A stretch of 64,000 nucleotides of DNA from an uncultured Bacilli bacterium (lineage in GTDB: Bacteria > Bacillota_I > Bacilli_A > RF39 > UBA660): positions 19,531 to 83,530 of the forward strand of contig CANRCV010000001.1 in NCBI GenBank assembly GCA_947629205.1. Reading direction: 5' to 3'. This document shows, piece by piece, positions 4,271 to 56,909 of the stretch. The notes under the pieces were generated by a model, which saw only the letters and a list, made by a program, of their open reading frames with translations, was not told where the DNA came from and made no database searches. The position numbers were made by a program, and so were the translations under genes. The first letter of the stretch is position 1. Every line of letters begins with the position of its first letter.

Positions 4271-4747
4271 TTATTTGTCTTTAATGATTTTAAGAATATT
4301 TTTGATTTCCTCACTTGAAAATATTTTTAATAATTTTAATACCGTTTCCACCTCTTGTAATGTTGTACAATATAATAAAGATGCCATAAGATAAAGTTTT
4401 GGACTAACTTTGATATGACGATAACAATACGGAATATAAAATTCATAATAACAAGGTATTAATATTTCAAAAAAAGAATCTACTTCACGATAACTAAAGT
4501 TAATATAAAATTTTTTATTTTCTACAAATAATTTTTTTGTATCTTCTAAATGAATTTTTAATATTAATTCGGTATTAATAAAAAAATGAAATTCAATTAT
4601 AGAGCTTGATTTATTTAAATCCATTTTATTTATTGGTATATTATTATCTAATCCAAAAAAATTTAATAACACTTTATCAAATTTATAACGATACTTTTTA
4701 TCTTCAAATATTTTCTTAAACTTTTCTTTTGTAATTAACCTTTGCAA
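4271..4747 (-). CDS. hypothetical protein (158 aa), first gene of the parAB-containing transcription unit
   Basis: ORF track. Apparent TTG start preceded by a strong RBS (AAGGAGG, 7 nt spacing). No family recognised. Confidence 0.4.
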   Translation of the reverse strand: MQRLITKEKFKKIFEDKKYRYKFDKVLLNFFGLDNNIPINKMDLNKSSSIIEFHFFINTELILKIHLEDTKKLFVENKKFYINFSYREVDSFFEILIPCYYEFYIPYCYRHIKVSPKLYLMASLLYCTTLQEVETVLKLLKIFSSEEIKNILKIIKDK

Positions 4748-4941: not shown

Positions 4942-6882
4942 TTAATTATTTATTGGTGTAAGAACGATACGGAAACTACGCTTTGATAGTCCACTATCAC
5001 CTTCATTAGAAAAAGCAAATATATTAGCTTGGATACCACTATTACTTTCGCCACCTCTCATAAACCATGGTAATTCGTTACCAATAAAACGAGCCCAACT
5101 TTCATTCCATGAATTAATTAGGTTATTACTTGTACTATATTTTTTCAACCCAAATGGTCCTAATTCTCCTGTGGCATCTCCTAATATTCTTTTATTATAA
5201 GTTGTGTAAACTGAACTATACTCATAAGCATCATAATATTTTTCATTCTCCTCCACTAAATCACTACTCCATATATTGCCATTCATATATCCCGTCACTA
5301 ATTCAAATGCACCCCCTGACATATCATATATTCCGCTATAATTTCCAGTTGTACTTGCAACGTTGCTTTTTTTGTTTTTGTAATTATAGCTTTTACCATT
5401 ATCTTGATTTGGTGTTACTATGTCATAACCATTATATTCAGTATATCCACTTGTTGGCATTTCTATTGCAGCATATCCTGTTACAAAATTTTGACTATTA
5501 TTTATCATTATTTCTGTACATATACCATCTGTACATATTCCATACTTAGAATGCGATAGATAAGCTACTGCTCCCCACTCTGTATTTTTCATCATATGGC
5601 TATCTAATTCTCTTTGATAAGCATAACTAACATCAAACATATTTTTTACTGTTATGCCTCTCCAACTATAAACATTTGGCTTTATAATAACTTTTGATGA
5701 ATTACTTTCATCTTTTTGAGCTTCTGTTGTACTGTTAGCATCTTTATATCCAGTTTCAAACTTTCCTACCCACATTCCTTTTGAACCTTCAAATGCTGTG
5801 AAGGCTGGATGTGTCATCCATTTATCCACTGCACATGAACCATCCTCTCCACTTGCATTTGGTGTTTCACAACTTGTTTCTGTATTTTCTGTATCATCTA
5901 AATCAAATTTAATTTCTATTGTTTGAGCTGCATTCTCATTTAATGGTCCATTTGCATCTGTATATTCTCCCATATTAAAGATTTTATATTTATATTTTGG
6001 TATCCATACAAAATAACTTTCGATGTTATCTTCTGGTATTGTATCTCCTTCTTTGTATTCTTTTGTATTGTCTACTAATATAACAGCATTTGCCCATTCC
6101 TTTTCTTCATAGTTATACCATTCTTCTTTTGTATTGGCTTTGGTTACTTTTCCTGTATCATCTATGATGACTGGTATTAGTTTATCATTGGTAGTTGGTT
6201 CTTCTGCTATTTCATTTGCAGTTAACATAGCTACTGGTTTACTACTTGTTTCTAATACTGGATCTGCTCCATGTAAGATTGGTTCTGTATATTCTGCTAC
6301 GGTATTCATTTTTCCATCTACTACTATTTTACTTATAAAATTTTTATTCATAGCATCATCATTGACGGTGACATCTTCATCCATCCATAGTTTTAATTTA
6401 AATTCTCTACTTTCTTGTCCTTTTAATGTTCCATTCATTAAATCTTTTGCTTCTATTGATGTATAATCATCTCCACTATAGGTGGTTACATCACTTGGAT
6501 ACTCACTTAATATTTGTTTTTGGCCACCATTTAGTTCTACTGCTACATACTTACTATCTAATATATTTTTTTCATTTTCACTACTTTCTTTTAATTTTTC
6601 TAGTTTTAATGAAAAATTAAGAGTTGTATTACATTTATTTTTTATTGTAAAACTATATGGTGTTAATTTTTGTGCTTCTTCATCTGTTATTGGGTATGCT
6701 TTTTCTAAATGAATAGCATCACTTTCATTTTCAAGAATCAAACTTAAACAATCACTTTGAATTTGATTCATACCTTGTTGTTCTGCAGTAGATGTCCACC
6801 ATGCAAAACTGGAACCTATCATTACAATTATTGTAAAGAGCATTCCTATTACTAAATATTTTTTCTTTTTACTTTTTTCCAT
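4942..6882 (-). CDS. exported two-domain protein, paralog 1: SipW/TasA-like N-terminal region plus C-terminal FGE-sulfatase (SUMF1)-like domain
   Basis: N-terminal signal/TM followed by ...SSFAWWTSTAEQ. C-terminal motifs EWGAVAYLSHSKYG, GIYDMSGGAFELVTGY, FMRGGES and SFRIVLTP parallel the FGE motifs SWxDAVAYCNW, GLYDMSGNVWEW, RGGSW and GFRC. RBS GGAGA upstream of the ATG at 6882. Confidence 0.6.
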   Translation of the reverse strand: MEKSKKKKYLVIGMLFTIIVMIGSSFAWWTSTAEQQGMNQIQSDCLSLILENESDAIHLEKAYPITDEEAQKLTPYSFTIKNKCNTTLNFSLKLEKLKESSENEKNILDSKYVAVELNGGQKQILSEYPSDVTTYSGDDYTSIEAKDLMNGTLKGQESREFKLKLWMDEDVTVNDDAMNKNFISKIVVDGKMNTVAEYTEPILHGADPVLETSSKPVAMLTANEIAEEPTTNDKLIPVIIDDTGKVTKANTKEEWYNYEEKEWANAVILVDNTKEYKEGDTIPEDNIESYFVWIPKYKYKIFNMGEYTDANGPLNENAAQTIEIKFDLDDTENTETSCETPNASGEDGSCAVDKWMTHPAFTAFEGSKGMWVGKFETGYKDANSTTEAQKDESNSSKVIIKPNVYSWRGITVKNMFDVSYAYQRELDSHMMKNTEWGAVAYLSHSKYGICTDGICTEIMINNSQNFVTGYAAIEMPTSGYTEYNGYDIVTPNQDNGKSYNYKNKKSNVASTTGNYSGIYDMSGGAFELVTGYMNGNIWSSDLVEENEKYYDAYEYSSVYTTYNKRILGDATGELGPFGLKKYSTSNNLINSWNESWARFIGNELPWFMRGGESNSGIQANIFAFSNEGDSGLSKRSFRIVLTPINN

Positions 6883-7001
6883 ATCATCAATTCTCCTATA
6901 TACAACTTATGATTGTATATAATATATATTTTACAACTTGAGGTTGTTATAGTCAATACAATTTCAAGTTGTATGATAATTTTCATTTAAGAGGTGTAAT
7001 T

Positions 7002-7223
7002 ATGAATATAGAAAGATTAAAAGAAATTCGTGAAGATAAAGATTTATATCAAAAAGACATAGCAAAAGTTTTGAATGTTTCTCAACAACAATATAATAAA
7101 TATGAATTAGGAATTAATTCCATTCCTATAGAAAAATTATATAAACTAGCAGATTTATATGAAACAAGTATTGATTATTTAGTTGGTAGAACCAATGAAA
7201 GAAAACCTTATCCTAAAAAATAA
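7002..7223 (+). CDS. XRE-family helix-turn-helix transcriptional regulator (about 73 aa), divergent from paralog 1
   Basis: Classic XRE HTH (...QKDIAKVLNVSQQQYNKYELG...). Start moved to ATG 7002, which has RBS AAGAGGTG. C-terminal tail GRTNERKPYPKK. Confidence 0.8.
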   Translation: MNIERLKEIREDKDLYQKDIAKVLNVSQQQYNKYELGINSIPIEKLYKLADLYETSIDYLVGRTNERKPYPKK

Positions 7224-7293: not shown

Positions 7294-9174
7294 TTATGGT
7301 GCAAGAACAATACGGAAGCCCATATTACTCTCTTCTCCACCACCTTCACCACAAAAAGCAAAGATTCCCGCTTCTACACCATTATGTTTGATTGAACCAC
7401 GATCCAGCCATGGTCCATTTTTAAACATAAACCAAGCATTATCAAAATGCCAAGAAGAAACATTTCTATCAGCATTACCATTGTAATGCACAAATGGTCC
7501 TAGTTCACCCGTTGCATCTCCTAGTATTCTATTTTTAAATACCAAATTATTTGTAGCATAATTATATACATCGTAATATTTTGAATTTTCTTCTTGATTA
7601 TTAAACGGAAAAGTACTAGTACTAAATCCACTTGAACCAAAGGTAAATCCAGTATTATTTGTTCCTTTTATTACTCCCATTGTATATTCCTTTGATCCAC
7701 CACTCATATCATATATTCCACTATAATTTCCTGTTGTACTTGCAACTTGACTTTTTGAATTTTTGTAATTTATCGTTTTTGTTCCATCAGCACCTAATCC
7801 ACTTGGGGTTTCATAGTCCCTATAGGCACTTAATCCAGTCATAGGTTCTTCTGTTGCCGCATAACCTGTAACAAATGCACTATTATTATTGATTCTTACT
7901 TCTACACATTTATCCCCATCACATGTTCCATACTTTGAATGGGATAAATAAGCTACTGCTCCCCATTCAGTATTCTTCATCATATGACTATCTAAGTCTA
8001 TTTGATAGTTATAACTTGTATCAAACATATTTTTTACTGTTATGTTTCTCCAACTATATACATTGGGTTTGATAATAACTTTTTCTGCTGCCAATTCATT
8101 GTGTTGCATAGCTTCTGTTGCACTTGTTACTCCATCATATCCAGTTTCAAATTTACCTACCCAAAATCCGTTTGTACCAAATGCAGTAAATGCTGATGGT
8201 GTCATCCACTTATCTACTGCACATGAGCCATTCTCTCCACTTGCTGGTGTTGTACATTCTATTGTGTTATCTACTGTATCATAGATTCCAAATTCTATTT
8301 CTATTTCTTGTGACTTTTCTTGATACTCATCTTGAGAAAGTCCATTATATTCTCCCATATTAAAGATTTTGTATTTATATTTTGGTATCCATACAAAATA
8401 ACTTTCTATATTTTCTTCTTTTATAGTTCCATCTTCTTCTATAGTACCATTATCTTTTAAGATAACCGCATTTGCCCATTCTTTTTTAGAATAATCATAC
8501 CATTTTTCTTCTATATTTGCTTTAGTTACTGTTCCATCTGTTTCATTTATTTTTACTGGTATTAAATTATCTTTTAGTACTGGATCTGCTCCATTTAATG
8601 TATCCTCTGTATATACTTTTGCTAGTGTATTTAATGTAGCATTCACTACGACTTTACTTTCAAATGTTTTATTCATGGACTCTTCATCTTCTACTGTTAC
8701 ATGTTCATCCATCCATAGTTTTAAACTATATTGTTTTGATTCTTTTCCATTTAGTATTCCTGTTGCTAGTTCATATCCTTTTTTATATTTTTCTAATGTT
8801 GTTTCTTTTAAACTATTTAATATTCTTTTGGTATTACTATTTAATTGTACTGCTATATATTCTTCTTTTAATGTACTACTATCACTTATACCTAAGTTTA
8901 CTGTATAGTTAATACTTGTATCACATGTATTTTCTACTTTAAAAGTAAATGGTGTTAAATCTTGTGCTTCTTCATCTGTTATTGGGTAGGCTTTTTCTAA
9001 ATGAATAGCATCTTTTTCTTCATTCAGTGATACTTTTAAACATGTACTTGTAATTTGATTAATTCCACTTTGTTCTGCAGTGGATGTCCACCATGCAAAA
9101 CTGGAACCTATAATAAGTGTTAATAAAAGTAATCCCCCAACAACACTGTAAATTACTCTTTCTTTTTTCTTCAT
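7294..9174 (-). CDS. exported TasA-like/FGE-like two-domain protein, paralog 2 (626 aa from ATG 9174)
   Basis: Start trimmed to MKKKERVIYSVVGGLLLL... (signal peptide). It has the same AWWTSTAEQSGINQI motif and the same C-terminal FGE-like motifs (GIYDMSGG, EWGAVAYLSHSKYG, FRIVLAP). Confidence 0.6.
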   Translation of the reverse strand: MKKKERVIYSVVGGLLLLTLIIGSSFAWWTSTAEQSGINQITSTCLKVSLNEEKDAIHLEKAYPITDEEAQDLTPFTFKVENTCDTSINYTVNLGISDSSTLKEEYIAVQLNSNTKRILNSLKETTLEKYKKGYELATGILNGKESKQYSLKLWMDEHVTVEDEESMNKTFESKVVVNATLNTLAKVYTEDTLNGADPVLKDNLIPVKINETDGTVTKANIEEKWYDYSKKEWANAVILKDNGTIEEDGTIKEENIESYFVWIPKYKYKIFNMGEYNGLSQDEYQEKSQEIEIEFGIYDTVDNTIECTTPASGENGSCAVDKWMTPSAFTAFGTNGFWVGKFETGYDGVTSATEAMQHNELAAEKVIIKPNVYSWRNITVKNMFDTSYNYQIDLDSHMMKNTEWGAVAYLSHSKYGTCDGDKCVEVRINNNSAFVTGYAATEEPMTGLSAYRDYETPSGLGADGTKTINYKNSKSQVASTTGNYSGIYDMSGGSKEYTMGVIKGTNNTGFTFGSSGFSTSTFPFNNQEENSKYYDVYNYATNNLVFKNRILGDATGELGPFVHYNGNADRNVSSWHFDNAWFMFKNGPWLDRGSIKHNGVEAGIFAFCGEGGGEESNMGFRIVLAP

Positions 9175-9303
9175 AAAATTCTCACTTTCTTTGCATGTAA
9201 TATGCGTAATACGTATATTACTTTTTAAATTTATTATATACGTAAAACGTATATAAGTCAATGCGTGAGACGTATATAATGTAAAATAAATTCAGTGATT
9301 AAT

Positions 9304-9525
9304 ATGAATATTGAAAGATTAAAAGAAATTAGAGAAGATAGAGATTTAAAGCAAATAGATATAGCAAAATTCCTTAAAGTTACACAAGCTCAATATTGTC
9401 GTTATGAAATGGGAGTTAATATAATTCCATTAGAAAAAATAGATAAACTTGCTGAATTTTATAATACTAGTGTTGATTATTTAATTGGTAGAACCAATGA
9501 AAGAAAACCTTATCCTAAAAAATAG
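9304..9525 (+). CDS. XRE-family HTH regulator 2 (about 73 aa), divergent from paralog 2
   Basis: MNIERLKEIRED...DIAKFLKVTQAQYCRYEMG... Same GRTNERKPYPKK tail. The last ~38 nt of its coding sequence are identical to the matching segment of XRE-1. Confidence 0.8.
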   Translation: MNIERLKEIREDRDLKQIDIAKFLKVTQAQYCRYEMGVNIIPLEKIDKLAEFYNTSVDYLIGRTNERKPYPKK

Positions 9526-9899: not shown

Positions 9900-10112
9900 T
9901 TACAAATACTTTATATTTATTTCACCTGTAGCTATATCAGAGTAAGTAAAACTTTTTTCTACTCCATTTTCATTTATTGTAAAAATACTTGGATAGACAT
10001 TTGAAATATAGCCATAGACTTTGTAATTTTTATTACGCATTCCAAAAACACTAACCTCTACTTGAGCATTTAAGTGTTTCTTTACTTCTTCACGAATAAT
10101 ATCTAAATTCAT
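9900..10112 (-). CDS. veg: Veg (DUF1021) biofilm/sporulation-associated small protein
   Basis: Motif ...YPSIFTI...SFTYSDIATGEINI is Veg-like. Its position between yabG and spoVG matches Bacillus. Confidence 0.75.
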   Translation of the reverse strand: MNLDIIREEVKKHLNAQVEVSVFGMRNKNYKVYGYISNVYPSIFTINENGVEKSFTYSDIATGEINIKYL

Positions 10113-10123
10113 AATAACCCCCT

Positions 10124-10906
10124 TTATCTTGGATATCCTACATACATAAGACCATTACAAATAATGCCTCCCATACCATCTTTTCCATATTTGGTTTGTT
10201 CTAATAAAGAAAGTAAATCAATTTCTTTATTTCTTTCTGTTAAAGCTATTGCAGTTGCAATAATAGCTGGATCTAAACAATGAATATTAATCCGTTTAGG
10301 ACTTGAAGCAAAATTGGCGCCAGCTTTAATTAATTCTTCATAATTACTTTGACAAGCTCCAGCAATAATGACTAATTTTTCATGACTTTTTTCATATTTA
10401 CGACACTCTTTTACGGCTTTAATAAAATTCTCAGTATTTTTATAATTGTGTATATCTTCTATTTTTCCTTTTTTCTTATAATAGGCATCATGTCCAGTAA
10501 TAATAACAATATCTGGTTTACATTCTTCTAATAAGTCTCTTATTTTTAAAGGAATTTCTATCTCATTTAACTTTTTACCAATAGCAAAAACACTATGTTT
10601 TTTATAATACTCTAAACATCTTTGCAAATATTCTTTATCCCCATCAATATGAAGAATTTTACCTGGTAAATAAAAATATTCACTACGATCAAATACATCA
10701 TCGTTTTTTTCTTCTGGAAAATCCATTTTTAAATTTTGTCGATCTTCTTCTGTGGTTTTTTTTAAATCTTCTATCTCACTATCTGCATATAAACGAACAT
10801 CAATTCCTTTTAAATAACATATATTACCTTTCATATTTATGACTTTAAACAAGGTATCATTATTATAACTATTTCTGGTTACAATATCCCCTTTTTTTAT
10901 TGGCAT
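10124..10906 (-). CDS. yabG: sporulation-specific protease YabG (peptidase U57)
   Basis: Long collinear similarity to B. subtilis YabG: ...DIVIITGHDAY...IIAGACQSNYEELIKAGANFASSPKRINIHCLDP... Confidence 0.8.
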   Translation of the reverse strand: MPIKKGDIVTRNSYNNDTLFKVINMKGNICYLKGIDVRLYADSEIEDLKKTTEEDRQNLKMDFPEEKNDDVFDRSEYFYLPGKILHIDGDKEYLQRCLEYYKKHSVFAIGKKLNEIEIPLKIRDLLEECKPDIVIITGHDAYYKKKGKIEDIHNYKNTENFIKAVKECRKYEKSHEKLVIIAGACQSNYEELIKAGANFASSPKRINIHCLDPAIIATAIALTERNKEIDLLSLLEQTKYGKDGMGGIICNGLMYVGYPR

Positions 10907-10959
10907 TTTAGTTCACCAATATATTATATGCACCTAAAATGGTTTTTGCCCATAAAAAT

Positions 10960-11742
10960 TTATTTTTCTAATTTTGTTGCTAAATAAATAAAATCTTTTG
11001 GTTTTATTTCTTCTGCTCTTATTGTTTCTTTATAACCAAGTTCATTTAAAATAGCATAGACTTTATTCCAATCATACTCTTTTAAATTATTTTTAAGAGT
11101 TTTTCTTTTATTTTGAAAAGCTTTACGAATCAATTGTTTATAAAATTCTTGGTTATGAATAGCACTATTTAATTTATGGGTTAATTTAATAACTGCACTA
11201 TCAACTTTAGGTACAGGAATAAAGTTTTTTTTATCTACATCAAATAAAATTTGTGCCTCATAATTCATAGCAATAAGTAAGGTTAGAGCATTGTATTCTT
11301 TATGATTTTCTTTAGCACAAATTCGATTGGCTACCTCTTTTTGTACAAGTAAAACAATTTCATCAATACTATTTAAATCAATTAATTTTAAGATAATAGG
11401 AGAGGTAATGTAATAAGGAATATTCGCTACCACTTTTATTTTTTGATAAGAAAAAATAGCACTATCTTTTTTTAAATCATGATTTAAAAAATCATCATAA
11501 ATGATTTTACACTTTTCACTTTGATAAACATTTAAATAATCTTCCATCCTTTTATCTATTTCATAGCATAGTAAATAACTATTTTTATTTTTTAAATGTT
11601 TTGTTAAAGCTCCCATACCTGGACCAATTTCAATAATTAAATCATTTTCTTGTACAGCAACACTATCTGCTATATTTTTTAAAATAGTTTCATTTTTTAA
11701 AAAGTTTTGACCAAATTTTTTCTTTGCTTGTATTCTTTCCAT
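10960..11742 (-). CDS. rsmA: 16S rRNA (adenine1518/1519-N6)-dimethyltransferase RsmA/KsgA
   Basis: KKKFGQNFL...IEIGPGMGALT motifs. Start set at ATG 11742 (RBS GGTG), which avoids overlap with the upstream gene. Confidence 0.85.
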   Translation of the reverse strand: MERIQAKKKFGQNFLKNETILKNIADSVAVQENDLIIEIGPGMGALTKHLKNKNSYLLCYEIDKRMEDYLNVYQSEKCKIIYDDFLNHDLKKDSAIFSYQKIKVVANIPYYITSPIILKLIDLNSIDEIVLLVQKEVANRICAKENHKEYNALTLLIAMNYEAQILFDVDKKNFIPVPKVDSAVIKLTHKLNSAIHNQEFYKQLIRKAFQNKRKTLKNNLKEYDWNKVYAILNELGYKETIRAEEIKPKDFIYLATKLEK

Positions 11743-11767
11743 TTTCATCACCAACTTAAAAAATGGC

Positions 11768-12304
11768 TTATTGCCATCCATTTCTTAATACATCATACGT
11801 AATTGAAGATCGACCTACATAAGCAGCATAGGAATCACTAGAGGTTAATAAATCAATATCATTTCCTAAAACACCTCGATCAAGAACAATAGCTAACACA
11901 GGATCTGTAGAAATACGATTACTATTAAAACGAATAATAGATCCACAAGGTAAGTTTTTACTAGATGCTACAATTTTTACATTTCCATAAGAAATATCTT
12001 GATACGTTTCCGTACCATCTAAAACATTATATCTAGGAAGACAAGCAAGTTTCCCACTACATAATGGACAAGTTGGTAAATAACTCGTTAAATCTCCAGT
12101 AAATGTATCTTTAGCACTATATAAATCATTTTTAATATCTTCTTGTAATTTTAATGCCATTGTTGCTAAATCAATAGATTTATTATAATTATCATTTAAT
12201 ACTTTTGTCTCTTTTATATTATTACTTGATTCTACAAATACAACTAATAAAATAAGCAAAGTTACTTGAAATAATCTTCTAAAAGTTTTAATAATATCGT
12301 GCAT
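11768..12304 (-). CDS. 3D-domain (MltA-like, YabE-type) secreted protein
   Basis: N-terminal signal/TM after ATG 12304 (RBS GAGGTGG). The C-terminal ...GSIIRF...AIVLDRGVLGNDIDLL... is 3D-domain-like. Confidence 0.55.
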   Translation of the reverse strand: MHDIIKTFRRLFQVTLLILLVVFVESSNNIKETKVLNDNYNKSIDLATMALKLQEDIKNDLYSAKDTFTGDLTSYLPTCPLCSGKLACLPRYNVLDGTETYQDISYGNVKIVASSKNLPCGSIIRFNSNRISTDPVLAIVLDRGVLGNDIDLLTSSDSYAAYVGRSSITYDVLRNGWQ

Positions 12305-16615: not shown

Positions 16616-17137
16616 TCAAGAAATATCCACTTTACTTACAATTAAATTTGACAAAAATTTTAAAAGAGAACAATATTCCTCTTCTAATGGACTTTCTTTA
16701 TAAAGAATAAGTAATCCTAAACAATCGGTAGAAGAAATAATCGGTTGAATAAAGAAATAACCACTTTTTTCTTCTCCATTTAATTTATATGCTTGCATTT
16801 GATTTTTTAAAACACTTTCTCTTTGATGAATAAAATGGATAAATTTTGAATCAATCTCTTTATTTTCTAAATCTTGAAAACGATTAGCATATACAAAGCG
16901 ATCACGATCCGTTACAAGTAAATTTACATCATAAACACTCGTAACCATTTCACAAATCGTATAAATTGTTTCTTTATAATCTTTAATTTTAGAATGTTTT
17001 TTTAAAATGACTTTATCATCTTCTACAAAGATTTCTAAATTTTCTCCTTCACGTATTCCTAAATTTCTTCTTATTTCTTTTGGTAAAACAATTCTACCTA
17101 ATTCATCAATTCTTCGAATAACACCTGTGGATTTCAA
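16616..17137 (-). CDS. spoVT: SpoVT/AbrB-family sporulation transcription regulator
   Basis: N-terminal AbrB swapped-hairpin motif (...GVIRRIDELGRIVLPKEIRRNLGI...) followed by a GAF-like C-terminal domain. Position next to mfd matches Bacillus. Confidence 0.8.
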   Translation of the reverse strand: MKSTGVIRRIDELGRIVLPKEIRRNLGIREGENLEIFVEDDKVILKKHSKIKDYKETIYTICEMVTSVYDVNLLVTDRDRFVYANRFQDLENKEIDSKFIHFIHQRESVLKNQMQAYKLNGEEKSGYFFIQPIISSTDCLGLLILYKESPLEEEYCSLLKFLSNLIVSKVDIS

Positions 17138-32438: not shown

Positions 32439-32897
32439 TTAAGAAATCTTCTCCCCTATTTTTCTTTCTCTTAAAATTGTTTCTAAACGAGCAGATTTTA
32501 ATATTTGATTGTTAATAACCTCATAGGAAGAATCAAGTCCTATTTTAAAACCATTTTTAAATTCTATATATAAAAGTCCATTATGATAATACATGGATTT
32601 AATTTTATTATAACGAAGCCATGAACAATTTTTTAATCTTGGACTTTTTGTAGGAAAAAAGATTAAATTACTACTCTCTTCTACTATAATTGGTGCTTTA
32701 TAAGAAGAACCTATCAACTTTCCTGTTCCTTTTTGTCTTCCTTCTAAAGAACTACCAAAATAAATACAACTTTCTTCCATGATTTCATTTGTTGGTTGAT
32801 TTACTAAAAATACTTTATCTTCTTCATATACCCTCGTTTTATCATTAATAGCATAAAGTGCTACCGTTTTTTCATTTACCTCATATTTTTTTTCCAT
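32439..32897 (-). CDS. ComK-family transcription factor-like protein (152 aa)
   Basis: Collinear matches to B. subtilis ComK: YEVNEKTVAL matches YEVNGATIAV; SCIYFGSSLEGRQKGT matches SCRFFGSSYAGRKAGT; KAPIIVEESSNLIFFPTKSPRLKNCSW matches KPPIMVDPSNQIFLFPTLSSTRPQCGW; NNQILKSARLETI matches ENQVYRTAWLRTK. Confidence 0.7.
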   Translation of the reverse strand: MEKKYEVNEKTVALYAINDKTRVYEEDKVFLVNQPTNEIMEESCIYFGSSLEGRQKGTGKLIGSSYKAPIIVEESSNLIFFPTKSPRLKNCSWLRYNKIKSMYYHNGLLYIEFKNGFKIGLDSSYEVINNQILKSARLETILRERKIGEKIS

Positions 32898-39586: not shown

Positions 39587-40792
39587 ATGATTATTCGTGA
39601 AAGATATTTAAAATTAATAAGACCATTTTATAATCAAGAATTAATTAAAGTATTAATTGGACTTAGACGTTCTGGTAAGTCTGTAATTTTAACGCAAATT
39701 ATTGATGAACTCAAAAAAGATAATATAGATGATCAACATATTATTTATATTAATTTTGAAGATTATGATTATGATGAATTAACGAATGCCAAAAGTTTAA
39801 ATAAATATATAAAAGAAAAAATGATAGATCAAAAGAAATATTATTTATTTTTTGATGAAATTCAAAATGTTGAATCTTGGGAAAAAGTTATAAATTCTTT
39901 TAGAGCAACTAAAAATGTATCCATATTTATAACAGGATCAAATAGTGATTTATTATCAAGTGATTTAGCAACGCATATTGCAGGAAGATATGTAAGTTTT
40001 AAAATAACTCCATTTACTTTTAGTGAAGTTTGCGAACTTTTAGAAATAAAAGATAAAGAGAAAATAGAAGAAGCCTTTAAAGATTATATAAAATGGGGTG
40101 GAATGCCTCAAAGATTTATGCAAACAGATGATTTATCTAAAAAAACTTATTTAAATGATATATATGATTCTATTATTATAAAAGATATAGTGAAAAGATT
40201 TAATATTAAAGATATAGATTTATTAAATAAAATTGTAACCTATGTTTTAACAACACCTGCTCAAACTTTTTCTCCTGAAAGTTTAAAAAAATATTTTGAA
40301 AGTGTTTCAAGAGGTGTATCTCTTGAAACGATTTATAACTATTTAGATTATATAACAAGAGCCAATTTAATATTTAAAGCCGAAAGATATGATATTAGAG
40401 GAAAAAGAATTTTAACAGGTAAATATAAGTATTATTTAACGGATTTAGGTTTTACTAATATACTAAGTGAAGGAAAAAAAGAAAAACTTGGTGCTTATTT
40501 AGAAAATATTGTTTATAATGAATTAATTGCAAGAGGCTATAATGTAAACATAGGAAATTTAGATAATGGAGAAATTGATTTCATCGCAACAAAATTTGAT
40601 GAAAAAATTTATGTTCAAGTAGCTTATTTACTTGCAGATGAATCGGTTATTCAAAGAGAGTTTGATGCTTATAAAAAAATAGAAGATAATTTTCCTAAAT
40701 ATGTATTATCTATGGATCATTTCGATTTTTCCAAAGATGGAATTATTCATAAAAACATTATAGATTGGTTATTAGAAGAAGAAAAAAACTAG
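39587..40792 (+). CDS. AAA+ ATPase with C-terminal DUF4143 (COG1373 family, PD-(D/E)xK-like C-terminal module), paralog 1
   Basis: Walker A GLRRSGKS. Conserved ...FITGSNS... The C-terminal ...GEIDFIA...YVQVAY... is typical of DUF4143. RBS AAGAGGAA. The gene sits between mnmE and mnmG. Confidence 0.75.
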   Translation: MIIRERYLKLIRPFYNQELIKVLIGLRRSGKSVILTQIIDELKKDNIDDQHIIYINFEDYDYDELTNAKSLNKYIKEKMIDQKKYYLFFDEIQNVESWEKVINSFRATKNVSIFITGSNSDLLSSDLATHIAGRYVSFKITPFTFSEVCELLEIKDKEKIEEAFKDYIKWGGMPQRFMQTDDLSKKTYLNDIYDSIIIKDIVKRFNIKDIDLLNKIVTYVLTTPAQTFSPESLKKYFESVSRGVSLETIYNYLDYITRANLIFKAERYDIRGKRILTGKYKYYLTDLGFTNILSEGKKEKLGAYLENIVYNELIARGYNVNIGNLDNGEIDFIATKFDEKIYVQVAYLLADESVIQREFDAYKKIEDNFPKYVLSMDHFDFSKDGIIHKNIIDWLLEEEKN

Positions 40793-43412: not shown

Positions 43413-45071
43413 ATGAATATCGACAAAAATATTCTAGAAATACCAATTGAGGACATTATTCCCAATCGTTTTCAACCAAGACTTTCATTTAACGAAGAAG
43501 GAATTACAGAACTAGCAGAGTCTATAAAACAACATGGGATTATTCAACCCCTTGTCGTAAGAAAACTTGGAGATAAGTATGAAATTATAGCTGGAGAAAG
43601 AAGATATAAAGCCGCTACAATGGCTGGTTTAACAAAAGTTCCAGTTATTATTTCTAATATAGATGATAATAAAAGTGCAGAGGTGGCTCTAGTGGAAAAT
43701 ATACAAAGAAGAAATTTAACAGCAATTGAAGAAGCAAAATCATATAAAAATCTGTTAGATAGAGGATATTTAACACAAGAACAACTTGCAAATAAAATGG
43801 GTGTATCTCAAAGTTCTATTGCCAATAAGCTACGTTTATTAAACTTAGATGAAGAGGTACAAGAAGCTTTATTAAATGAAAAAATAAGTGAAAGACATGC
43901 GAGAGCATTACTTGCACTTGAAGATAAAGAAGAACAAAAGAAATGGTTAAAAAGAATTATTGATGAAAGATTAACAGTAAGACAATTAGATTTAGAACTT
44001 AAAAAATTACAAGAAAATGGAGATTCTGCTGATAGTGATGAAATTAAATTAGTCAATATTAATCCTAATTTAGATGAAATCGTATCCAATGCAGAAGATA
44101 TTGTTGTACAAAGAGCACCACATGATGTTGCGAGTATGTTAATTCCAGAGGTACAAGAAGAACCAAAAGAAGAAATAAAAGAAGAACAAGAAACAAAACC
44201 TTCTAATAAATTCTTTAATTTTTTAGAAAATGAAGAAGCAAACATGAGTGTCATTGAACCAGATGAAATTTTAGATACATTTACAACTACTTCTGTAATG
44301 GAAAATCCTATAGAATCTACTGTAGAAGAACAACCAAAAGAACCAGTTTTAAATAATGATTCTCCTACTATAAATGAAGAGGTAACACCAATAGAAAATC
44401 CGTTTACAGATACACCAATGATAAATACCCCACAAGAAGAAAATAAAGTAGATTCAGTTGAATTATTAGATGAATTAGATGATGAAGAAGATTTACAACC
44501 AATGAAACCAGAATTAAATTCATTTATTACAGAAGATATTGTAAATGAAATTGCTAATGAACCAGATGAAGAAGCAAATGATTCTGCTATGGCAAATATC
44601 TTTGAAACTCCATCTACTGAACCAATTAATAATGAAAATACAATTGTAGAAGAAACACCAAGTATAGATTCTGTTCCTGTAATAGAACCTACACCTATAG
44701 AAGAACCAGTAAATACTCAACAAGAAGAAACTAAAACAAATGAAGAAGAACCATTTAAATCTATTTTCTTTAATCATGAAGAAGAAAAACCAGAAGAAGT
44801 AGTTTCTCCTATTGAAGATAATAAAATAGAAGAAATAGAACCAACAGTAGAAGAAAATATTGTTGATCCATTAGATAGTATTGTAACTTTAGAACCTAAT
44901 TATCAACAAAAACAAGAAGAATTAGCAGGAAGAGATTTAAAAACAGCTATTAATACTGTTCGTAATACCATTAAAGAGTTAGAAAATAAAGGCTTTCTAA
45001 TTGAAACCGAAGAGGCTGATTTAGAAGATGTTTATCATATAACCATAAAAATTGATAAAGATAATAAATAA
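43413..45071 (+). CDS. noc: ParB-family protein in the Noc position (after rsmG), carrying an unusually long (~300 aa) acidic/Pro-rich low-complexity insertion before a conserved C-terminal segment
   Basis: ParB N-terminal box (...RFQPR...IIQPLVV...IIAGERR) plus an HTH. Residues about 250-510 are E/P/T/N-rich. 552 aa against ~280 aa for typical Noc. Confidence 0.7.
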   Translation: MNIDKNILEIPIEDIIPNRFQPRLSFNEEGITELAESIKQHGIIQPLVVRKLGDKYEIIAGERRYKAATMAGLTKVPVIISNIDDNKSAEVALVENIQRRNLTAIEEAKSYKNLLDRGYLTQEQLANKMGVSQSSIANKLRLLNLDEEVQEALLNEKISERHARALLALEDKEEQKKWLKRIIDERLTVRQLDLELKKLQENGDSADSDEIKLVNINPNLDEIVSNAEDIVVQRAPHDVASMLIPEVQEEPKEEIKEEQETKPSNKFFNFLENEEANMSVIEPDEILDTFTTTSVMENPIESTVEEQPKEPVLNNDSPTINEEVTPIENPFTDTPMINTPQEENKVDSVELLDELDDEEDLQPMKPELNSFITEDIVNEIANEPDEEANDSAMANIFETPSTEPINNENTIVEETPSIDSVPVIEPTPIEEPVNTQQEETKTNEEEPFKSIFFNHEEEKPEEVVSPIEDNKIEEIEPTVEENIVDPLDSIVTLEPNYQQKQEELAGRDLKTAINTVRNTIKELENKGFLIETEEADLEDVYHITIKIDKDNK

Positions 45072-45097
45072 AGTGCTAAAAAAAACTAGCACTTTTT
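45072..45097. terminator. bidirectional terminator hairpin AGTGCTA-A8-TAGCACT followed by a T-run, between the noc-like gene and the RHH gene
   Basis: Read from the sequence. It overlaps the RHH stop codon. Confidence 0.5.
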
Positions 45098-45283
45098 ATT
45101 TTTATCCTCTTTTTCTTCCTCTTCTAATTCATTTAATACATATTCACAAGCTTGAATTACAAATCTTGAAAAATTAGATTCAGTTCCTTCTAAATATTTT
45201 TCAATTTTTTCAATTAATGGTAAAGGAAACCTAATTGTTTTTGTTTCACTTTCTTTTCTATCTATGTTTAATTTAAAAGCCAT
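45086..45283 (-). CDS. small ribbon-helix-helix (Arc/CopG-like) DNA-binding protein with an acidic tail, divergent from paralog 3
   Basis: N-terminal beta-strand KTIRFPLPL, then helices IEKIEKYL and NFSRFVIQACEYVL. RBS GGTGA. Confidence 0.5.
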   Translation of the reverse strand: MAFKLNIDRKESETKTIRFPLPLIEKIEKYLEGTESNFSRFVIQACEYVLNELEEEEKEDKNKKC

Positions 45284-45330
45284 ATTTTCACCACTTTCTT
45301 ATTACAATAAATTTTATAATAAAAATGCAA

Positions 45331-45346
45331 TGCAATATGTATTGCA
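45331..45346. promoter_or_regulatory. 16-bp perfect inverted repeat TGCAATA-TG-TATTGCA in the divergent RHH/paralog-3 promoter region (candidate operator)
   Basis: Read from the sequence. A further TGCAA half-site lies 2 bp upstream. Confidence 0.5.
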
Positions 45347-45387
45347 AAATGTAATACAAAAATGGTAAAATCAAAATAGGTGAGAAT

Positions 45388-47268
45388 ATGGAAAAAAGTA
45401 AAACAAAATATTTGATTATAGTAGGAATACTTATTATGATGTTAATTGCTATAGGTTCGGGTTATGCCTGGTGGACGTCTACTGCAGAACAAAGTGGAAT
45501 TAATCAAATTCAAAGTGATTGTTTAAAAATATCTTATACAGATGATAACCCTATAAAATTAGATACAACGTATCCTTTAACAGATAAAGAAGGAGAAGCA
45601 TTAACTCCTTATACATTTACTATACAAAATACTTGTTCTAACGCTATAGATTATACTATAAATTTAGGTATAAGTGATACTAATACTTTAAATGATGAAT
45701 ATGTTGCAGTCAAGTTAAATGATAATACGAAAAGAATATTAGATAGTTTAAAACAAACAAAAATTAAAAACTACAATAAATCTTATGAACTAGCAACAGG
45801 AATACTAAATGGAAGTGAATCAAAAGAATTTAGTTTAAGACTATGGATGGATGAACATGTAACATTAAGTGATGATGCAATAAATAAAACATTCTCAAGT
45901 AAAGTAGTAGTAGAAGCAACCTTAAATACATTAGCAAAAGTATATACAGATGATGAATTAAATGGAGCAGATCCAGTATTAAAAGATAATTTAATACCAG
46001 TAAAAATAAATGAAACAGATGGAACAGTAACTAAAGCAAATATAGAAGAAGAATGGTACAACTATAAAAATAAAGAATGGGCAAATGCCGTTATATTAAA
46101 AGATAATGGAACTATAGAAGAAGATGGAACTATCAAAGAAGAGAGTATAGAAAGTTATTTTGTATGGATACCAAAGTATAAATACAAAATCTTTAATATG
46201 GGAGAATATAATGGATTAAGTGAAGGAGCATATGAAGAAAAATCTCAAGAAATAGAAATTGAATTTGGAATCTATGATACAGTAAATAACACAATTGAGT
46301 GTACAACACCACCAAGTGGAGAAAATGGATCATGTGCAGTAGATAAATGGATGACACCATCAGCATTTACAAGTTTTGCTACAAATGGATTCTGGGTAGG
46401 TAAATTTGAAACTGGATATGATGGAGCAACTAATGATACTTTTGCTACAGGTACTACATGTAAGAATGAGGTTAATGTAACTAATGTTTCAAAAATTATA
46501 ATTAAACCAAATTCTTATTCATGGAGATGTATTAATATGGCAAATATGTATAAAAATTCATACAATTATCAAAGAGACTTAGATAGTCATATGATGAAGA
46601 ATACAGAGTGGGGAGCAGTTGCCTATCTATCACATTCCAAATATGGAACATGTGATAGTGGTAAATGTACAGAGATTAGATTGAATAACAATACAAATTA
46701 TATTACTGGATATGCAGCAGTTAATCAACCAGTAGGTGGACTAGATGTTTATAAAGAATATATAGGTACCACGCCTGGTATAGATAACGATAAAACTTAT
46801 AACTATAAAAATAAAAAAAGTACAATAGCAAGCACAACTGGAAATTATAGTGGAATTTATGACTTATCAGGAGATTGTTGGGAAATCGTAATGGGGGTTA
46901 CAACTAGTGCCACTAGTGCAAAAGATGCAACTTTAGAAAATATACAATTAGGAACATCAGGATTAACTAAAGATGATATAAAAGATAGAAAATATGTAGA
47001 TTTATATACAAGTGGTACATACTTACAATATAATAGAAGAATACTTGGTGATGCAACAGGAGAGATGGGAACGTTTAGATTATCACCTGAAAAGAGTGGT
47101 AGGATACGAGGATCTTGGTATAATGATCTAGGATCACAAATTGTTTCAAACAGCTCTTTTATTCGAGGTGGATCGTTTGGGCAAGGTGTGGAAGGTGGAT
47201 CTTTTGAGTTTTCTATGGGTGTTTATATTAGAAATGATTTTTCTTTCCGTATAGTCTTAACACCATAA
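45388..47268 (+). CDS. exported TasA-like/FGE-like two-domain protein, paralog 3 (626 aa)
   Basis: Signal peptide followed by GSGYAWWTSTAEQSGINQIQSDC. C-terminal motifs EWGAVAYLSHSKYG, GIYDLSGDCWEIV, FIRGGSFGQG and FSFRIVLTP give the closest FGE-like match of the three paralogs. Confidence 0.65.
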   Translation: MEKSKTKYLIIVGILIMMLIAIGSGYAWWTSTAEQSGINQIQSDCLKISYTDDNPIKLDTTYPLTDKEGEALTPYTFTIQNTCSNAIDYTINLGISDTNTLNDEYVAVKLNDNTKRILDSLKQTKIKNYNKSYELATGILNGSESKEFSLRLWMDEHVTLSDDAINKTFSSKVVVEATLNTLAKVYTDDELNGADPVLKDNLIPVKINETDGTVTKANIEEEWYNYKNKEWANAVILKDNGTIEEDGTIKEESIESYFVWIPKYKYKIFNMGEYNGLSEGAYEEKSQEIEIEFGIYDTVNNTIECTTPPSGENGSCAVDKWMTPSAFTSFATNGFWVGKFETGYDGATNDTFATGTTCKNEVNVTNVSKIIIKPNSYSWRCINMANMYKNSYNYQRDLDSHMMKNTEWGAVAYLSHSKYGTCDSGKCTEIRLNNNTNYITGYAAVNQPVGGLDVYKEYIGTTPGIDNDKTYNYKNKKSTIASTTGNYSGIYDLSGDCWEIVMGVTTSATSAKDATLENIQLGTSGLTKDDIKDRKYVDLYTSGTYLQYNRRILGDATGEMGTFRLSPEKSGRIRGSWYNDLGSQIVSNSSFIRGGSFGQGVEGGSFEFSMGVYIRNDFSFRIVLTP

Positions 47269-47284
47269 TGAACAAAAATGCAAA

Positions 47285-47328
47285 AAATGTCAATTTTGTA
47301 TTCTGTGGAATACAAAATTGACATTTTC
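47285..47328 (+). terminator. 20-bp perfect-stem hairpin AAAATGTCAATTTTGTATTC-TGTG-GAATACAAAATTGACATTTT followed by a T-rich tract
   Basis: Read from the sequence. The stem is unusually long for a terminator. Confidence 0.55.
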
Positions 47329-47368
47329 TTTTCATTGTGCTACCATTTTAAATAGTGAGGGGATACAA

Positions 47369-48577
47369 ATGATTATTCGTGAAAACTATTTAAAAAAAAT
47401 AAGACCATTTTATGATGTTGATTTAATTAAAGTTATAACGGGAATTAGAAGATGTGGAAAAACAATTACTTTTTTACAAATTATGGATGAAATAAAAGAA
47501 AAAGGTGTTCCAGAAGAAAATATTATTTATATAAACTTTGAATTAAAAAAATATTCTTTTATTAAAAATGATGATGATTTATATCAATACATAAAAGAGA
47601 ATATGAAAAATAAAAAGAAATATTATTTATTTTTGGATGAAATTCAAAATGTTTTAAAATGGGAATTAACAATTAATTCACTTAAAGCCGAATATAATGA
47701 CAAAATATCTATTTTTATAACGGGTTCCAATAGTGATTTATTATCTAGTGAACTTGCTACCCATATTGCTGGGAGATATGTAAGTTTTCAAATACATCCT
47801 TTTACTTTTGAAGAGGTATGTGAATTTAAAAAAATCAAAAATAAAAATAAATATGAATTAGAAAGTGAATTTGAAAATTATTTATTATGGGGTGGAATGC
47901 CACAAAGACTTATATTTAAAGAAAAAGAGGAAATAAATGCTTATTTTATAGATGTACTTAATTCTATTATAAAAGATGTTGTTGAAAGATTTAAAATAAA
48001 AGATATTGATTTATTTAATCGTATTTTAGAATATATTATTACAACACCTTCTCAAATTTTTTCTGTAGAAAGTATTCAAAAGTATTTTGAATCAGAAAAT
48101 AGAAAAGTAACCAAAAATACAATATATAATTATTTAGATTATTTATGTAAAACTTTTTTAATTCAAAAAGTAGAACGTTATGATGTACGTGGTAAAAAAA
48201 TATTGCAAGGAAAATTTAAGTATTATTTAACGGATTTAGGATTAGGTCAAATAATGAATGCTTCTAAAAGAGTTCAATTAGGAGCTTATTTAGAAAATGT
48301 TGTTTATAATGAATTAATTTATCGTGGATATGATGTTAAAATTGGAACGCTTCCTAAAGGCGAAATTGACTTTATTGCTGAAAAAGATGGAGCAAAAGAA
48401 TATTATCAAGTTTGTCTTTATGTGGGTGATGATGAAAAAATAATTGATCGAGAATTTAATACATATAAAAATATTAAAGATAATTATCCTAAATATGTAA
48501 TTTCAATGGATAAATTTGATTTATCAAGTGAAGGAATTATCCATAAGAATATAATTGATTGGCTATTAAACAAGTAA
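47369..48577 (+). CDS. AAA+ ATPase with C-terminal DUF4143, paralog 2 (~60% identical to the copy at 39587-40792)
   Basis: Walker A GIRRCGKT. Collinear with the other copy throughout. Start trimmed to ATG 47369 (RBS GTGAGGGG). Confidence 0.75.
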   Translation: MIIRENYLKKIRPFYDVDLIKVITGIRRCGKTITFLQIMDEIKEKGVPEENIIYINFELKKYSFIKNDDDLYQYIKENMKNKKKYYLFLDEIQNVLKWELTINSLKAEYNDKISIFITGSNSDLLSSELATHIAGRYVSFQIHPFTFEEVCEFKKIKNKNKYELESEFENYLLWGGMPQRLIFKEKEEINAYFIDVLNSIIKDVVERFKIKDIDLFNRILEYIITTPSQIFSVESIQKYFESENRKVTKNTIYNYLDYLCKTFLIQKVERYDVRGKKILQGKFKYYLTDLGLGQIMNASKRVQLGAYLENVVYNELIYRGYDVKIGTLPKGEIDFIAEKDGAKEYYQVCLYVGDDEKIIDREFNTYKNIKDNYPKYVISMDKFDLSSEGIIHKNIIDWLLNK

Positions 48578-56351: not shown

Positions 56352-56399
56352 TTTGAATAAAAAATAAAAAAATAAGACATTATTATTTAGGTGAATAAA

Positions 56400-56909
56400 A
56401 TGAAAAAAATAATAATTGTCTTATTTTTATTTGTCTGTTTATTTTTATTAACACAAGGAAAAGAAGAATATATTATTCCAGATAGTGCTATACGATTACG
56501 TGTTATTGCCAGTAGTAATACATTTGAAGATCAAGCAACTAAAATGGAAATTAAAAACAACATTGAAACCATATTACAACAAGATTTAACCAAACGACAA
56601 ACAAAAGAGGAAGCAACTTTAAATATTCAAAATAACCTTCCTAAAATTAAAACCATGTTAAATAATTATAATTTGGATTATAAAATGAATTATGGAAAAA
56701 ATTATTTCCCAGAAAAAACATACAAAGGAGTAAAATATGAAGAAGGAATGTATGAATCTTTAGTAGTAACTTTAGGTAGTGGTGAAGGAGAAAATTGGTG
56801 GTGTGTACTTTTTCCACCTCTATGTTTTATTGATGAAAGTAAAATAGAAAATAAAGAAAATATGAACTATGCTTTTTTTGTCAAAGAATTATTTCAAAAA
56901 TATATGTAA
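56400..56909 (+). CDS. spoIIR: stage II sporulation protein R
   Basis: Signal peptide. Hallmark motif GENWWCVLFPPLCF. Start set at ATG 56400 (RBS AGGTGA). Confidence 0.75.
   Translation: MKKIIIVLFLFVCLFLLTQGKEEYIIPDSAIRLRVIASSNTFEDQATKMEIKNNIETILQQDLTKRQTKEEATLNIQNNLPKIKTMLNNYNLDYKMNYGKNYFPEKTYKGVKYEEGMYESLVVTLGSGEGENWWCVLFPPLCFIDESKIENKENMNYAFFVKELFQKYM

Follow-up and report, generated by a model that had tools for sequence, protein, structure and literature searches.

What kind of protein is encoded by three long, unnamed genes in the replication-origin region of an uncultured gut bacterium, and how has its most variable part come to vary? The question is raised by a stretch of 64,000 nucleotides from a member of the Bacilli (GenBank assembly GCA_947629205.1, contig CANRCV010000001.1, positions 19,531 to 83,530 of the forward strand; hereafter the window), which carries three paralogs (Table 1) with a common plan, in which a signal-like N-terminus is followed by a beta-sandwich and then by a large C-terminal domain. 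The three are 50-64% identical to one another, paralogs 2 and 3 sharing 53% and 64% identity with paralog 1. A first-pass annotation, made from the letters alone, had described them as an N-terminal region resembling the fibre protein TasA fused to a formylglycine-generating enzyme (FGE) sulfatase fold. Its view that these are three paralogs of one architecture is borne out by the open reading frames (ORFs), the pairwise identities and the shared motifs. AWWTSTAEQ(S/Q)G(I/M)NQI, LWMDE(H/D)VT, EWGAVAYLSHSKYG, GIYD(L/M)SG and FRIVL(T/A)P are all found in the proteins, while some of the bracketed alternatives that it quoted for other motifs miss paralog 3 (FTFKVENTC, GIYDMSGGSKEYT, DRGS). The reading that we consider likely is a different one, namely that these are exported surface or secreted ligand-binding proteins with a lectin fold, of the type that is targeted by diversity-generating retroelements (DGRs), and that the copies in the window are fixed alleles.

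A predicted lectin-fold domain at the C-terminus

An AlphaFold2 model of paralog 1, built on an alignment of 86 sequences, has a mean predicted local distance difference test score (pLDDT) of 89.2. It lays the protein out as a helix (residues 3-26), a low-confidence stretch (23-42), a beta-sandwich (45-180) and a large domain (186-626) that is modelled with very high confidence. This model predicts that the C-terminal 440 residues form a C-type-lectin domain of the FGE subtype, with inserts. The best structural match to this domain is TaqVP (PDB 5VF4), at 19% identity, and structure comparison gave values of 13.0 for PvdO, 12.0 for TvpA (a Treponema DGR variable protein), 10.7 for pFGE, 10.4 for both Mtd and EgtB and 10.3 for PorK. 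A sequence-profile search of the PDB agrees with the model, its two best matches (weak, with E > 1) being 5vf4 and PvdO. According to the TaqVP paper, DGR variable proteins are built on the FGE-subtype fold as a conserved scaffold, with the variable region at the very C-terminus (PMC6328139).

The FGE-sulfatase assignment of the first-pass annotation thus stands as a fold in the model and fails as a family match, PF03781 being absent from the three window proteins and from the isolated C-terminal half even at E <= 10. Among relatives PF03781 is detected weakly in 11 of 43, with a best E-value of 0.0022. The same annotation had seen no cysteine pair in the C-terminal tail and had suggested a non-catalytic domain, and in both respects it was right: none of the three tails contains Cys-x4-Cys, those of paralogs 1 and 2 have no cysteine at all and that of paralog 3 has a single one, at a variable site. 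The absence of the FGE cysteine pair excludes a catalytic FGE role.

Full-length relatives are targets of diversity-generating retroelements

DGRs were sought by comparing the last 260 nucleotides of each family gene with its own locus. Two complete cassettes of the MSL type, comprising target, template repeat, MutS_I, bAvd and reverse transcriptase, were found in metagenome-assembled genomes (MAGs) of Bacilli from the Hadza gut (locus L025, 109-4345; locus L032, 10001-14243). Their target genes match residues 2-626 and 1-626 of the query with 43% and 41% identity, respectively, and a copy of the last ~140 nucleotides of each gene lies downstream as the template repeat. In L025 (gene 109-2034) the variable region (1889-2030) departs from the template repeat (2245-2386) at 16 positions, and all 16 are template adenines; in L032 (gene 10001-11911; variable region 11760-11900, template repeat 12116-12256) the same holds for 12 of 12 mismatches. 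Further downstream both loci encode a small MutS_I protein, bAvd (E 3e-21) and a reverse transcriptase (RVT_1, E 3e-17), which is the gene set of the MSL-type cassette of Wu et al. (PMC5758913). These full-length relatives are genuine DGR targets.

Traces of the same system occur at other loci. L027 has the same reverse transcriptase beside a family gene, and L020 and L081 retain decayed remnants of template repeats. On a different contig of the MAG that contains L025, a family gene (L020 11736-11879) is likewise matched by the L025 template repeat, with 14 of 15 substitutions at adenines, and therefore remote (trans) targets exist in the family; the L020 gene is probably a second, remote target of that repeat.

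The variable region of the window copies

The segment of paralog 1 that is equivalent to the DGR variable region is a putative ligand-binding surface. Across the family, the last ~45 residues hold about 12 hypervariable positions on the invariant scaffold W..D...F......PWF.RGG....G..AG.F.F.......FR(I/V)VL. Columns with asparagine in the template repeat have a mean entropy of 3.5 bits, as against 1.95 for other C-terminal columns and 1.54 for the whole domain. No columns in the family vary more than the 12 that are DGR-variable, and at all 12 the three window paralogs differ from one another.

The codons at these sites differ between the window genes and the rewritten relatives. Codons ending in a pyrimidine (NNY) occupy 6, 7 and 7 of the 12 variable sites in the three window genes compared with 12 of 12 in L025 and L032, the background frequency being ~0.45. 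The window sites also include glutamine, methionine, glutamate, lysine and tryptophan, none of which an AAY codon can come to encode through adenine mutagenesis. The guanine-plus-cytosine (GC) content of the last 150 nucleotides is 35-41% in the window genes (36% in paralog 1) and thus lower than the 51-53% of the DGR-linked genes. Neither repeat finding nor sensitive blastn revealed a template repeat in the 64-kb window, the matches being paralogy only, and the known template repeats of the family have no match there at E < 1e-6. No reverse-transcriptase-like ORF or Avd is present in the window, the neighbours and small ORFs that were scanned belonging to other families or to none. As we read these sequences, the window genes would be three fixed alleles that are not being rewritten now and whose diversity would have come from duplication and divergence.

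The N-terminal signal and the conserved segment behind it

Residues 1-27 of paralog 1 comprise an n-region (MEKSKTKY), an h-region of 14 residues and a c-region (GSGYA). In the family at large a basic n-region and ~14 hydrophobic residues are followed by G-x-[ST]-[YF]-A|x-[WF], with strong conservation of G23 (84%), S/T25 (98%), Y/F26 (99%), A27 (94%) and W/F29 (94%). The n-h-c layout, together with conserved small residues at -3 and -1, fits a signal peptide, and paralog 1 would be cleaved after A27. The segment that follows is conserved although predicted to be disordered, with Q35, N39 and S/T43 strongly conserved across the family.

Assignment of the start codons matters here. The ATG of paralog 1 lies 4 nt downstream of a ribosome-binding site (GGTGAG), whereas the public annotation (P0001, 610 amino acids) begins 16 codons later at an internal methionine and omits 45388-45435; this removes the n-region together with half the hydrophobic stretch, so that the signal peptide would escape automated predictors. 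The mechanical ORF of paralog 3 extends to a TTG at 9261, which is the -35 hexamer of a promoter-like TTGACT-17-TATAAT, and the true start is therefore the ATG at 9174.

The first-pass annotation had likened the N-termini to signals that are cleaved by the peptidase SipW. In TasA the site GGTWA|AF, with aromatic residues at P2 and P2', makes for a poor substrate of ordinary signal peptidase and is handled by SipW (PMC10269814); the mature N-terminus of TasA is confirmed as A28. The family has the elements of this pattern, with a small residue at P3, alanine at P1 and aromatic residues at P2 and P2', and to that extent the likeness holds. It does not extend to the profile TIGR04088, whose best score among the window proteins is 13.6 bits, in paralog 3 only, against a cut-off of 19. 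Among family N-termini TIGR04088 matches 8 of 40 at E <= 1 (best E 0.0015) and TIGR04090 weakly matches 4 of 40; generic signal-anchor models match as often as TIGR04088 does, and the N-termini of the DGR-linked subfamily have no SipW-type match in NCBIfam. The observation that the window encodes no SipW-type signal peptidase was confirmed by an S26-type motif scan of the ORFs and by scans of the small ORFs, which belong to other families or to none and include no signal peptidase. No S26-type signal peptidase I motif was found in the window ORFs, nor in 1.15 Mb of family loci (79 loci, each searched to a distance of 10 kb).

The beta-sandwich and the question of TasA

When modelled alone, the N-terminal domain reaches a pLDDT of 82, with a core above 90. 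A Foldseek search with the domain returned nothing at E <= 1e-3; the top matches, all above that value, were the jelly-roll protein AvmM, the pilin CfaB and a Pyrobaculum bundling pilin. Alignment by hhalign was not significant either with TasA alone (E 0.068) or with a 40-sequence TasA/CalY alignment (E 0.12), and with the TasA/CalY family the aligned stretch covered only the first ~55 residues. PF12389 (Peptidase_M73) is likewise without a match at E <= 10, whether the three proteins are searched whole or by halves. The proposed resemblance to TasA is accordingly a lead and not a finding. The first-pass annotation had itself named Pfam assignment of the two halves as the check on its interpretation; neither PF03781 nor PF12389 was found, and by that measure alone the interpretation would fall. 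On the evidence as a whole it is partly supported.

A large family and a widespread N-terminal module

The family is very large. At least 7,767 homologs were found at E <= 1e-3, a similarity well outside what chance would give, and none of them has a name or a Pfam domain. When one genome per species was scanned, at least 580 loci came to light, nearly all in MAGs of uncultured gut 'Bacilli', 'Tenericutes' or Erysipelotrichaceae from rabbit, mouse, chicken and humans. Genomes carry many copies, with at least 10 in one rabbit MAG, and 81 sampled loci contain 133 family ORFs, often in tandem. A tblastn search of 50,697 phage records with the lectin domain found no homolog.

The signal and the beta-sandwich together make up an N-terminal module (N-module) that extends well beyond the lectin family. 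Its profile matches 6,649 representatives of clusters at 50% identity at E <= 1e-3, and 963 at E <= 1e-30, always at residues ~20-190 of proteins that range from 173 to 1,897 amino acids. In ten N-module proteins of non-standard length Pfam matched nothing over the module. Three of these (855, 491 and 485 amino acids) had no Pfam match anywhere, and the other seven carried PKD or Ig-like domains, beta-helix, fn3, BNR or Listeria-Bacteroides repeats, or an alpha/beta-hydrolase. Within the lectin family, conversely, the sandwich is missing from some members, which retain just the signal and a [ST]FA[LI]Y motif, and others (e.g., P0107) have inserted Ig-like repeats. So wide a distribution with such varied passengers makes the module look like a general device for export, anchoring or a stalk, of which the lectin domain is one passenger.

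How the proteins may work

In the reading that we favour, a Sec-type N-terminal signal would carry the protein across the membrane and the jelly-roll sandwich would probably serve as base or stalk, with the last ~45 residues of the lectin domain presenting the binding surface. In L025 and L032, relatives with the same full-length architecture, it is at these very positions that a DGR has rewritten the gene, through adenine-specific mutagenesis of the template repeat. Each window copy is accompanied by a small divergent gene for a predicted DNA-binding protein that may control it separately. By analogy with other DGR variable proteins, the ligand could be a surface molecule of the host, of another microbe or of a phage.

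Several observations weigh against this reading. Single-sequence scans of the three proteins and their halves with Pfam and NCBIfam gave nothing significant. A DGR or its remnant was found in only ~3-5 of 79 sampled loci, and it may be that the majority of the family was never targeted by a DGR. A template repeat could lie at a distance, given that remote targets occur in the family and that the search covered 64 kb of the genome. The N-terminal segment is either a cleaved signal peptide or a retained membrane anchor, and the binding function is suggested by the fold and by the relatives.

Alternative readings

Among the competing explanations, the one that lies closest to the first-pass annotation holds that the proteins are TasA-like fibre subunits, in which a SipW-type (endoplasmic-reticulum-type) peptidase cuts after S-Y-A and the disordered mature N-terminus is donated as a strand to the jelly-roll of the next subunit, giving a surface fibre with lectin heads. 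The aromatic residues at P2 and P2' are placed as in TasA, the top Foldseek matches include the donor-strand subunits CfaB and the Pyrobaculum bundling pilin, residues 28-44 are conserved despite their predicted disorder in the monomer, and weak TIGR04088 and TIGR04090 matches occur in the family. The alignments with the TasA family and the PF12389 search point the other way, as do a TIGR04088 score that falls below its cut-off in the window and vanishes in the DGR-linked subfamily and the lack of a signal peptidase gene in the window or near the 79 loci. Moreover, a module that also heads proteins of up to 1,897 amino acids with PKD, beta-helix or hydrolase passengers fits a common export or anchoring module better, and we regard the fibre as unlikely. 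A broader version starts from the N-module itself: SipW-like signal, conserved disordered strand and jelly-roll would together be a device, so far unrecognised, by which uncultured gut Bacilli assemble or anchor surface proteins, with TasA and archaeal bundling pilins as remote kin. Its passengers, mounted on surfaces or fibres, would include lectin heads diversified by DGR or by paralogy. Taken as a whole this is an unlikely proposition; were it true, these bacteria would have a Gram-positive equivalent of the pilus adhesins that DGRs diversify in Bacteroides.

Two further explanations concern the lectin domain. The three genes might be active DGR targets, diversified in trans by a template repeat and reverse transcriptase elsewhere in the genome: the family does contain DGR targets, with a remote one in one MAG, the GC content of the last 150 nt lies slightly above the gene average of 30-31%, and paralog 1 has a perfect hairpin beyond its stop codon. 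This hairpin is AT-rich, whereas the hairpins described beside DGR variable regions are GC-rich, and it is probably a terminator. NNY codons at background level, residues that adenine mutagenesis of AAY codons could not yield, three variable-region equivalents too diverged to share one template repeat, and the failure to find either a local repeat or a match to the known ones together make ongoing rewriting decidedly unlikely. It is more improbable by far that the proteins are enzymes of the FGE/EgtB/OvoA type, whether formylglycine-generating or sulfoxide-synthase-like. Although pFGE and EgtB appear among the structural matches, non-enzymatic variable proteins score much higher, the FGE cysteine pair and a DinB-type N-terminal domain are both absent, and variation within the family peaks in the region that corresponds to the FGE active site. 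With catalytic residues missing and an active-site equivalent that is hypervariable, the enzyme reading was rejected.

Genomic surroundings

The window is the replication-origin region of a spore-forming Firmicute with 27% GC, in which the GC skew switches near 36 kb. Profile scans identified ParA, ParB, a ParB/Noc-like protein, ksgA, recR, SpoVT, SpoIIR and ComK, and jag, mnmE, mnmG, rsmG, spoVG, veg and yabG were picked out by eye among the translations. The presence of ComK, SpoVT, SpoIIR and YabG homologs means that regulators of sporulation and competence have apparently been kept in this gut bacterium.

Table 1. Positions of the features discussed (numbering of the window; residues are those of paralog 1)
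Feature	Position	Strand	Remarks
Paralog 1	45388-47268	+	626 aa; signal, jelly-roll beta-sandwich and FGE-type C-type-lectin domain (ORF, AlphaFold2 model)
Residues 1-27	45388..45468	+	Sec-type signal peptide or signal anchor; helix 3-26 in model
Residues 28-44	45469..45519	+	Conserved, predicted disordered (WWTSTAEQSGINQIQSD); pLDDT <50 at 23-42
Residues 45-180	45520..45927	+	Predicted jelly-roll beta-sandwich; with signal, N-terminal module common to many surface proteins
Residues 186-626	45943..47265	+	Predicted FGE-subtype C-type-lectin domain with inserts
Residues 583-626	47134..47265	+	Equivalent of DGR variable region; aligns with variable regions of L025 and L032
Inverted repeat	47284-47327		Perfect, 20 bp, AT-rich, 4-nt loop; 16 nt past paralog 1 stop
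65-aa ORF	45086..45283	-	Divergent from paralog 1; weak DUF3950 match, E 0.054
Paralog 2	4942-6882	-	646 aa; architecture as paralog 1
Terminator-like hairpin	4889-4866		Downstream of paralog 2
XRE-family helix-turn-helix protein	6969..7223	+	Small, divergent from paralog 2; Pfam HTH_3, E 1.2e-14
Paralog 3	7294-9174	-	626 aa; architecture as paralog 1
Promoter-like TTGACT-17-TATAAT	9261-9233		Upstream of paralog 3
XRE-family helix-turn-helix protein	9295..9525	+	Small, divergent from paralog 3; Pfam HTH_3, E 1.6e-11
YabG	10124-10906
SpoVT	16616-17137
ComK	32439-32897
SpoIIR	56391-56909

Each paralog faces a small divergent gene. The XRE gene next to paralog 3 is 81% identical in DNA to 7001-7222, and paralogs 2 and 3 were duplicated jointly with their XRE genes as a 2.3-kb module. 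The 65-residue ORF beside paralog 1 is possibly a ribbon-helix-helix regulator, to judge from its strand-helix-helix pattern. Between this ORF and paralog 1 (45290-45387) lie operator-like inverted repeats of the TGCAAT/ATTGCA type, and the stretch that separates paralog 2 from its XRE gene (6900-6970) has similar repeats (ACAACTT/AAGTTGT).

Clustering of neighbours over 79 loci gave no conserved operon partner, only extra family copies and a family of ~280 residues recurring. The latter (N-terminus like ...SDTTFKYLYKN...) has 13 copies at 11 loci near family genes, among them L007, L025, L028, L032, L036, L062, L064, L070 and L075, and no profile match. Directly downstream of paralog 2, a 158-residue ORF (4271-4747) has no Pfam match and no relative in the 81 sampled loci.

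Two paralogous ATPase genes of the AAA_14/DUF4143 type (39587-40792 and 47318-48577) are 72-79% identical over matching DNA stretches; the one is inserted between mnmE and mnmG and the other directly follows paralog 1. The TTG start of the latter falls inside the inverted repeat, so that its true start is probably further downstream. The ParB/Noc-like protein (43413-45071) consists of a ParB_N and HTH_ParB core (residues 1-200) and an acidic extension of ~350 residues, rich in proline, glutamate and asparagine, in which no domain was matched.

Comparison with known systems

A literature search found no description of the family, of its N-module or of any link between DGRs and TasA-like proteins, and DGR and TasA searched together gave no papers. 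The present analysis provides a structural and functional handle on a very large set of 'hypothetical' proteins and assigns it to the DGR variable-protein type in uncultured gut Bacilli, some copies being actively rewritten and others fixed. Since both kinds occur, the family could be used to compare retroelement mutagenesis with gene duplication as sources of binding-site diversity. It also draws attention to an unannotated N-module that heads many kinds of surface protein (~6,600 clusters at 50% identity).

TaqVP of Thermus aquaticus (PDB 5VF4; PMC6328139) is a single-domain protein, to which the window proteins add a signal and a jelly-roll module; they differ from it further in their 19% identity and in a locus without template repeat, reverse transcriptase or Avd. 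TvpA of Treponema denticola (2Y3C) and Mtd of Bordetella phage BPP-1 (1YU0) have other N-terminal parts, and Mtd is a trimer of a phage tail fibre, whereas the window family is cellular and has no homolog in the phage records. Members of the FGE-sulfatase superfamily (FGE/SUMF1, pFGE, EgtB, PvdO, PorK/GldK) share the fold; the window proteins fall below the Pfam threshold and lack the catalytic cysteines. PF03781 proteins belong to periplasmic, type IX secretion or biosynthetic contexts, and the window proteins would belong to a Gram-positive surface. The DGR-diversified type V pilus adhesins of Bacteroides (Macadangdang et al., bioRxiv 10.1101/2024.11.15.621889) resemble them in coming from gut bacteria and in setting a DGR-type lectin on a surface-structure module; they differ in phylum, carrier module and export route, and the window offers no evidence of a pilus. 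The first-pass annotation had thought the combination of domains undescribed. It is more aptly seen as the common layout of cellular DGR targets, which are mostly membrane-anchored or secreted proteins with an N-terminal transmembrane segment or signal, variable N-terminal domains and a C-type-lectin domain at the C-terminus (Roux et al., 2021; PMC8144416), and the window proteins fit as new members of this kind and not as a new class.

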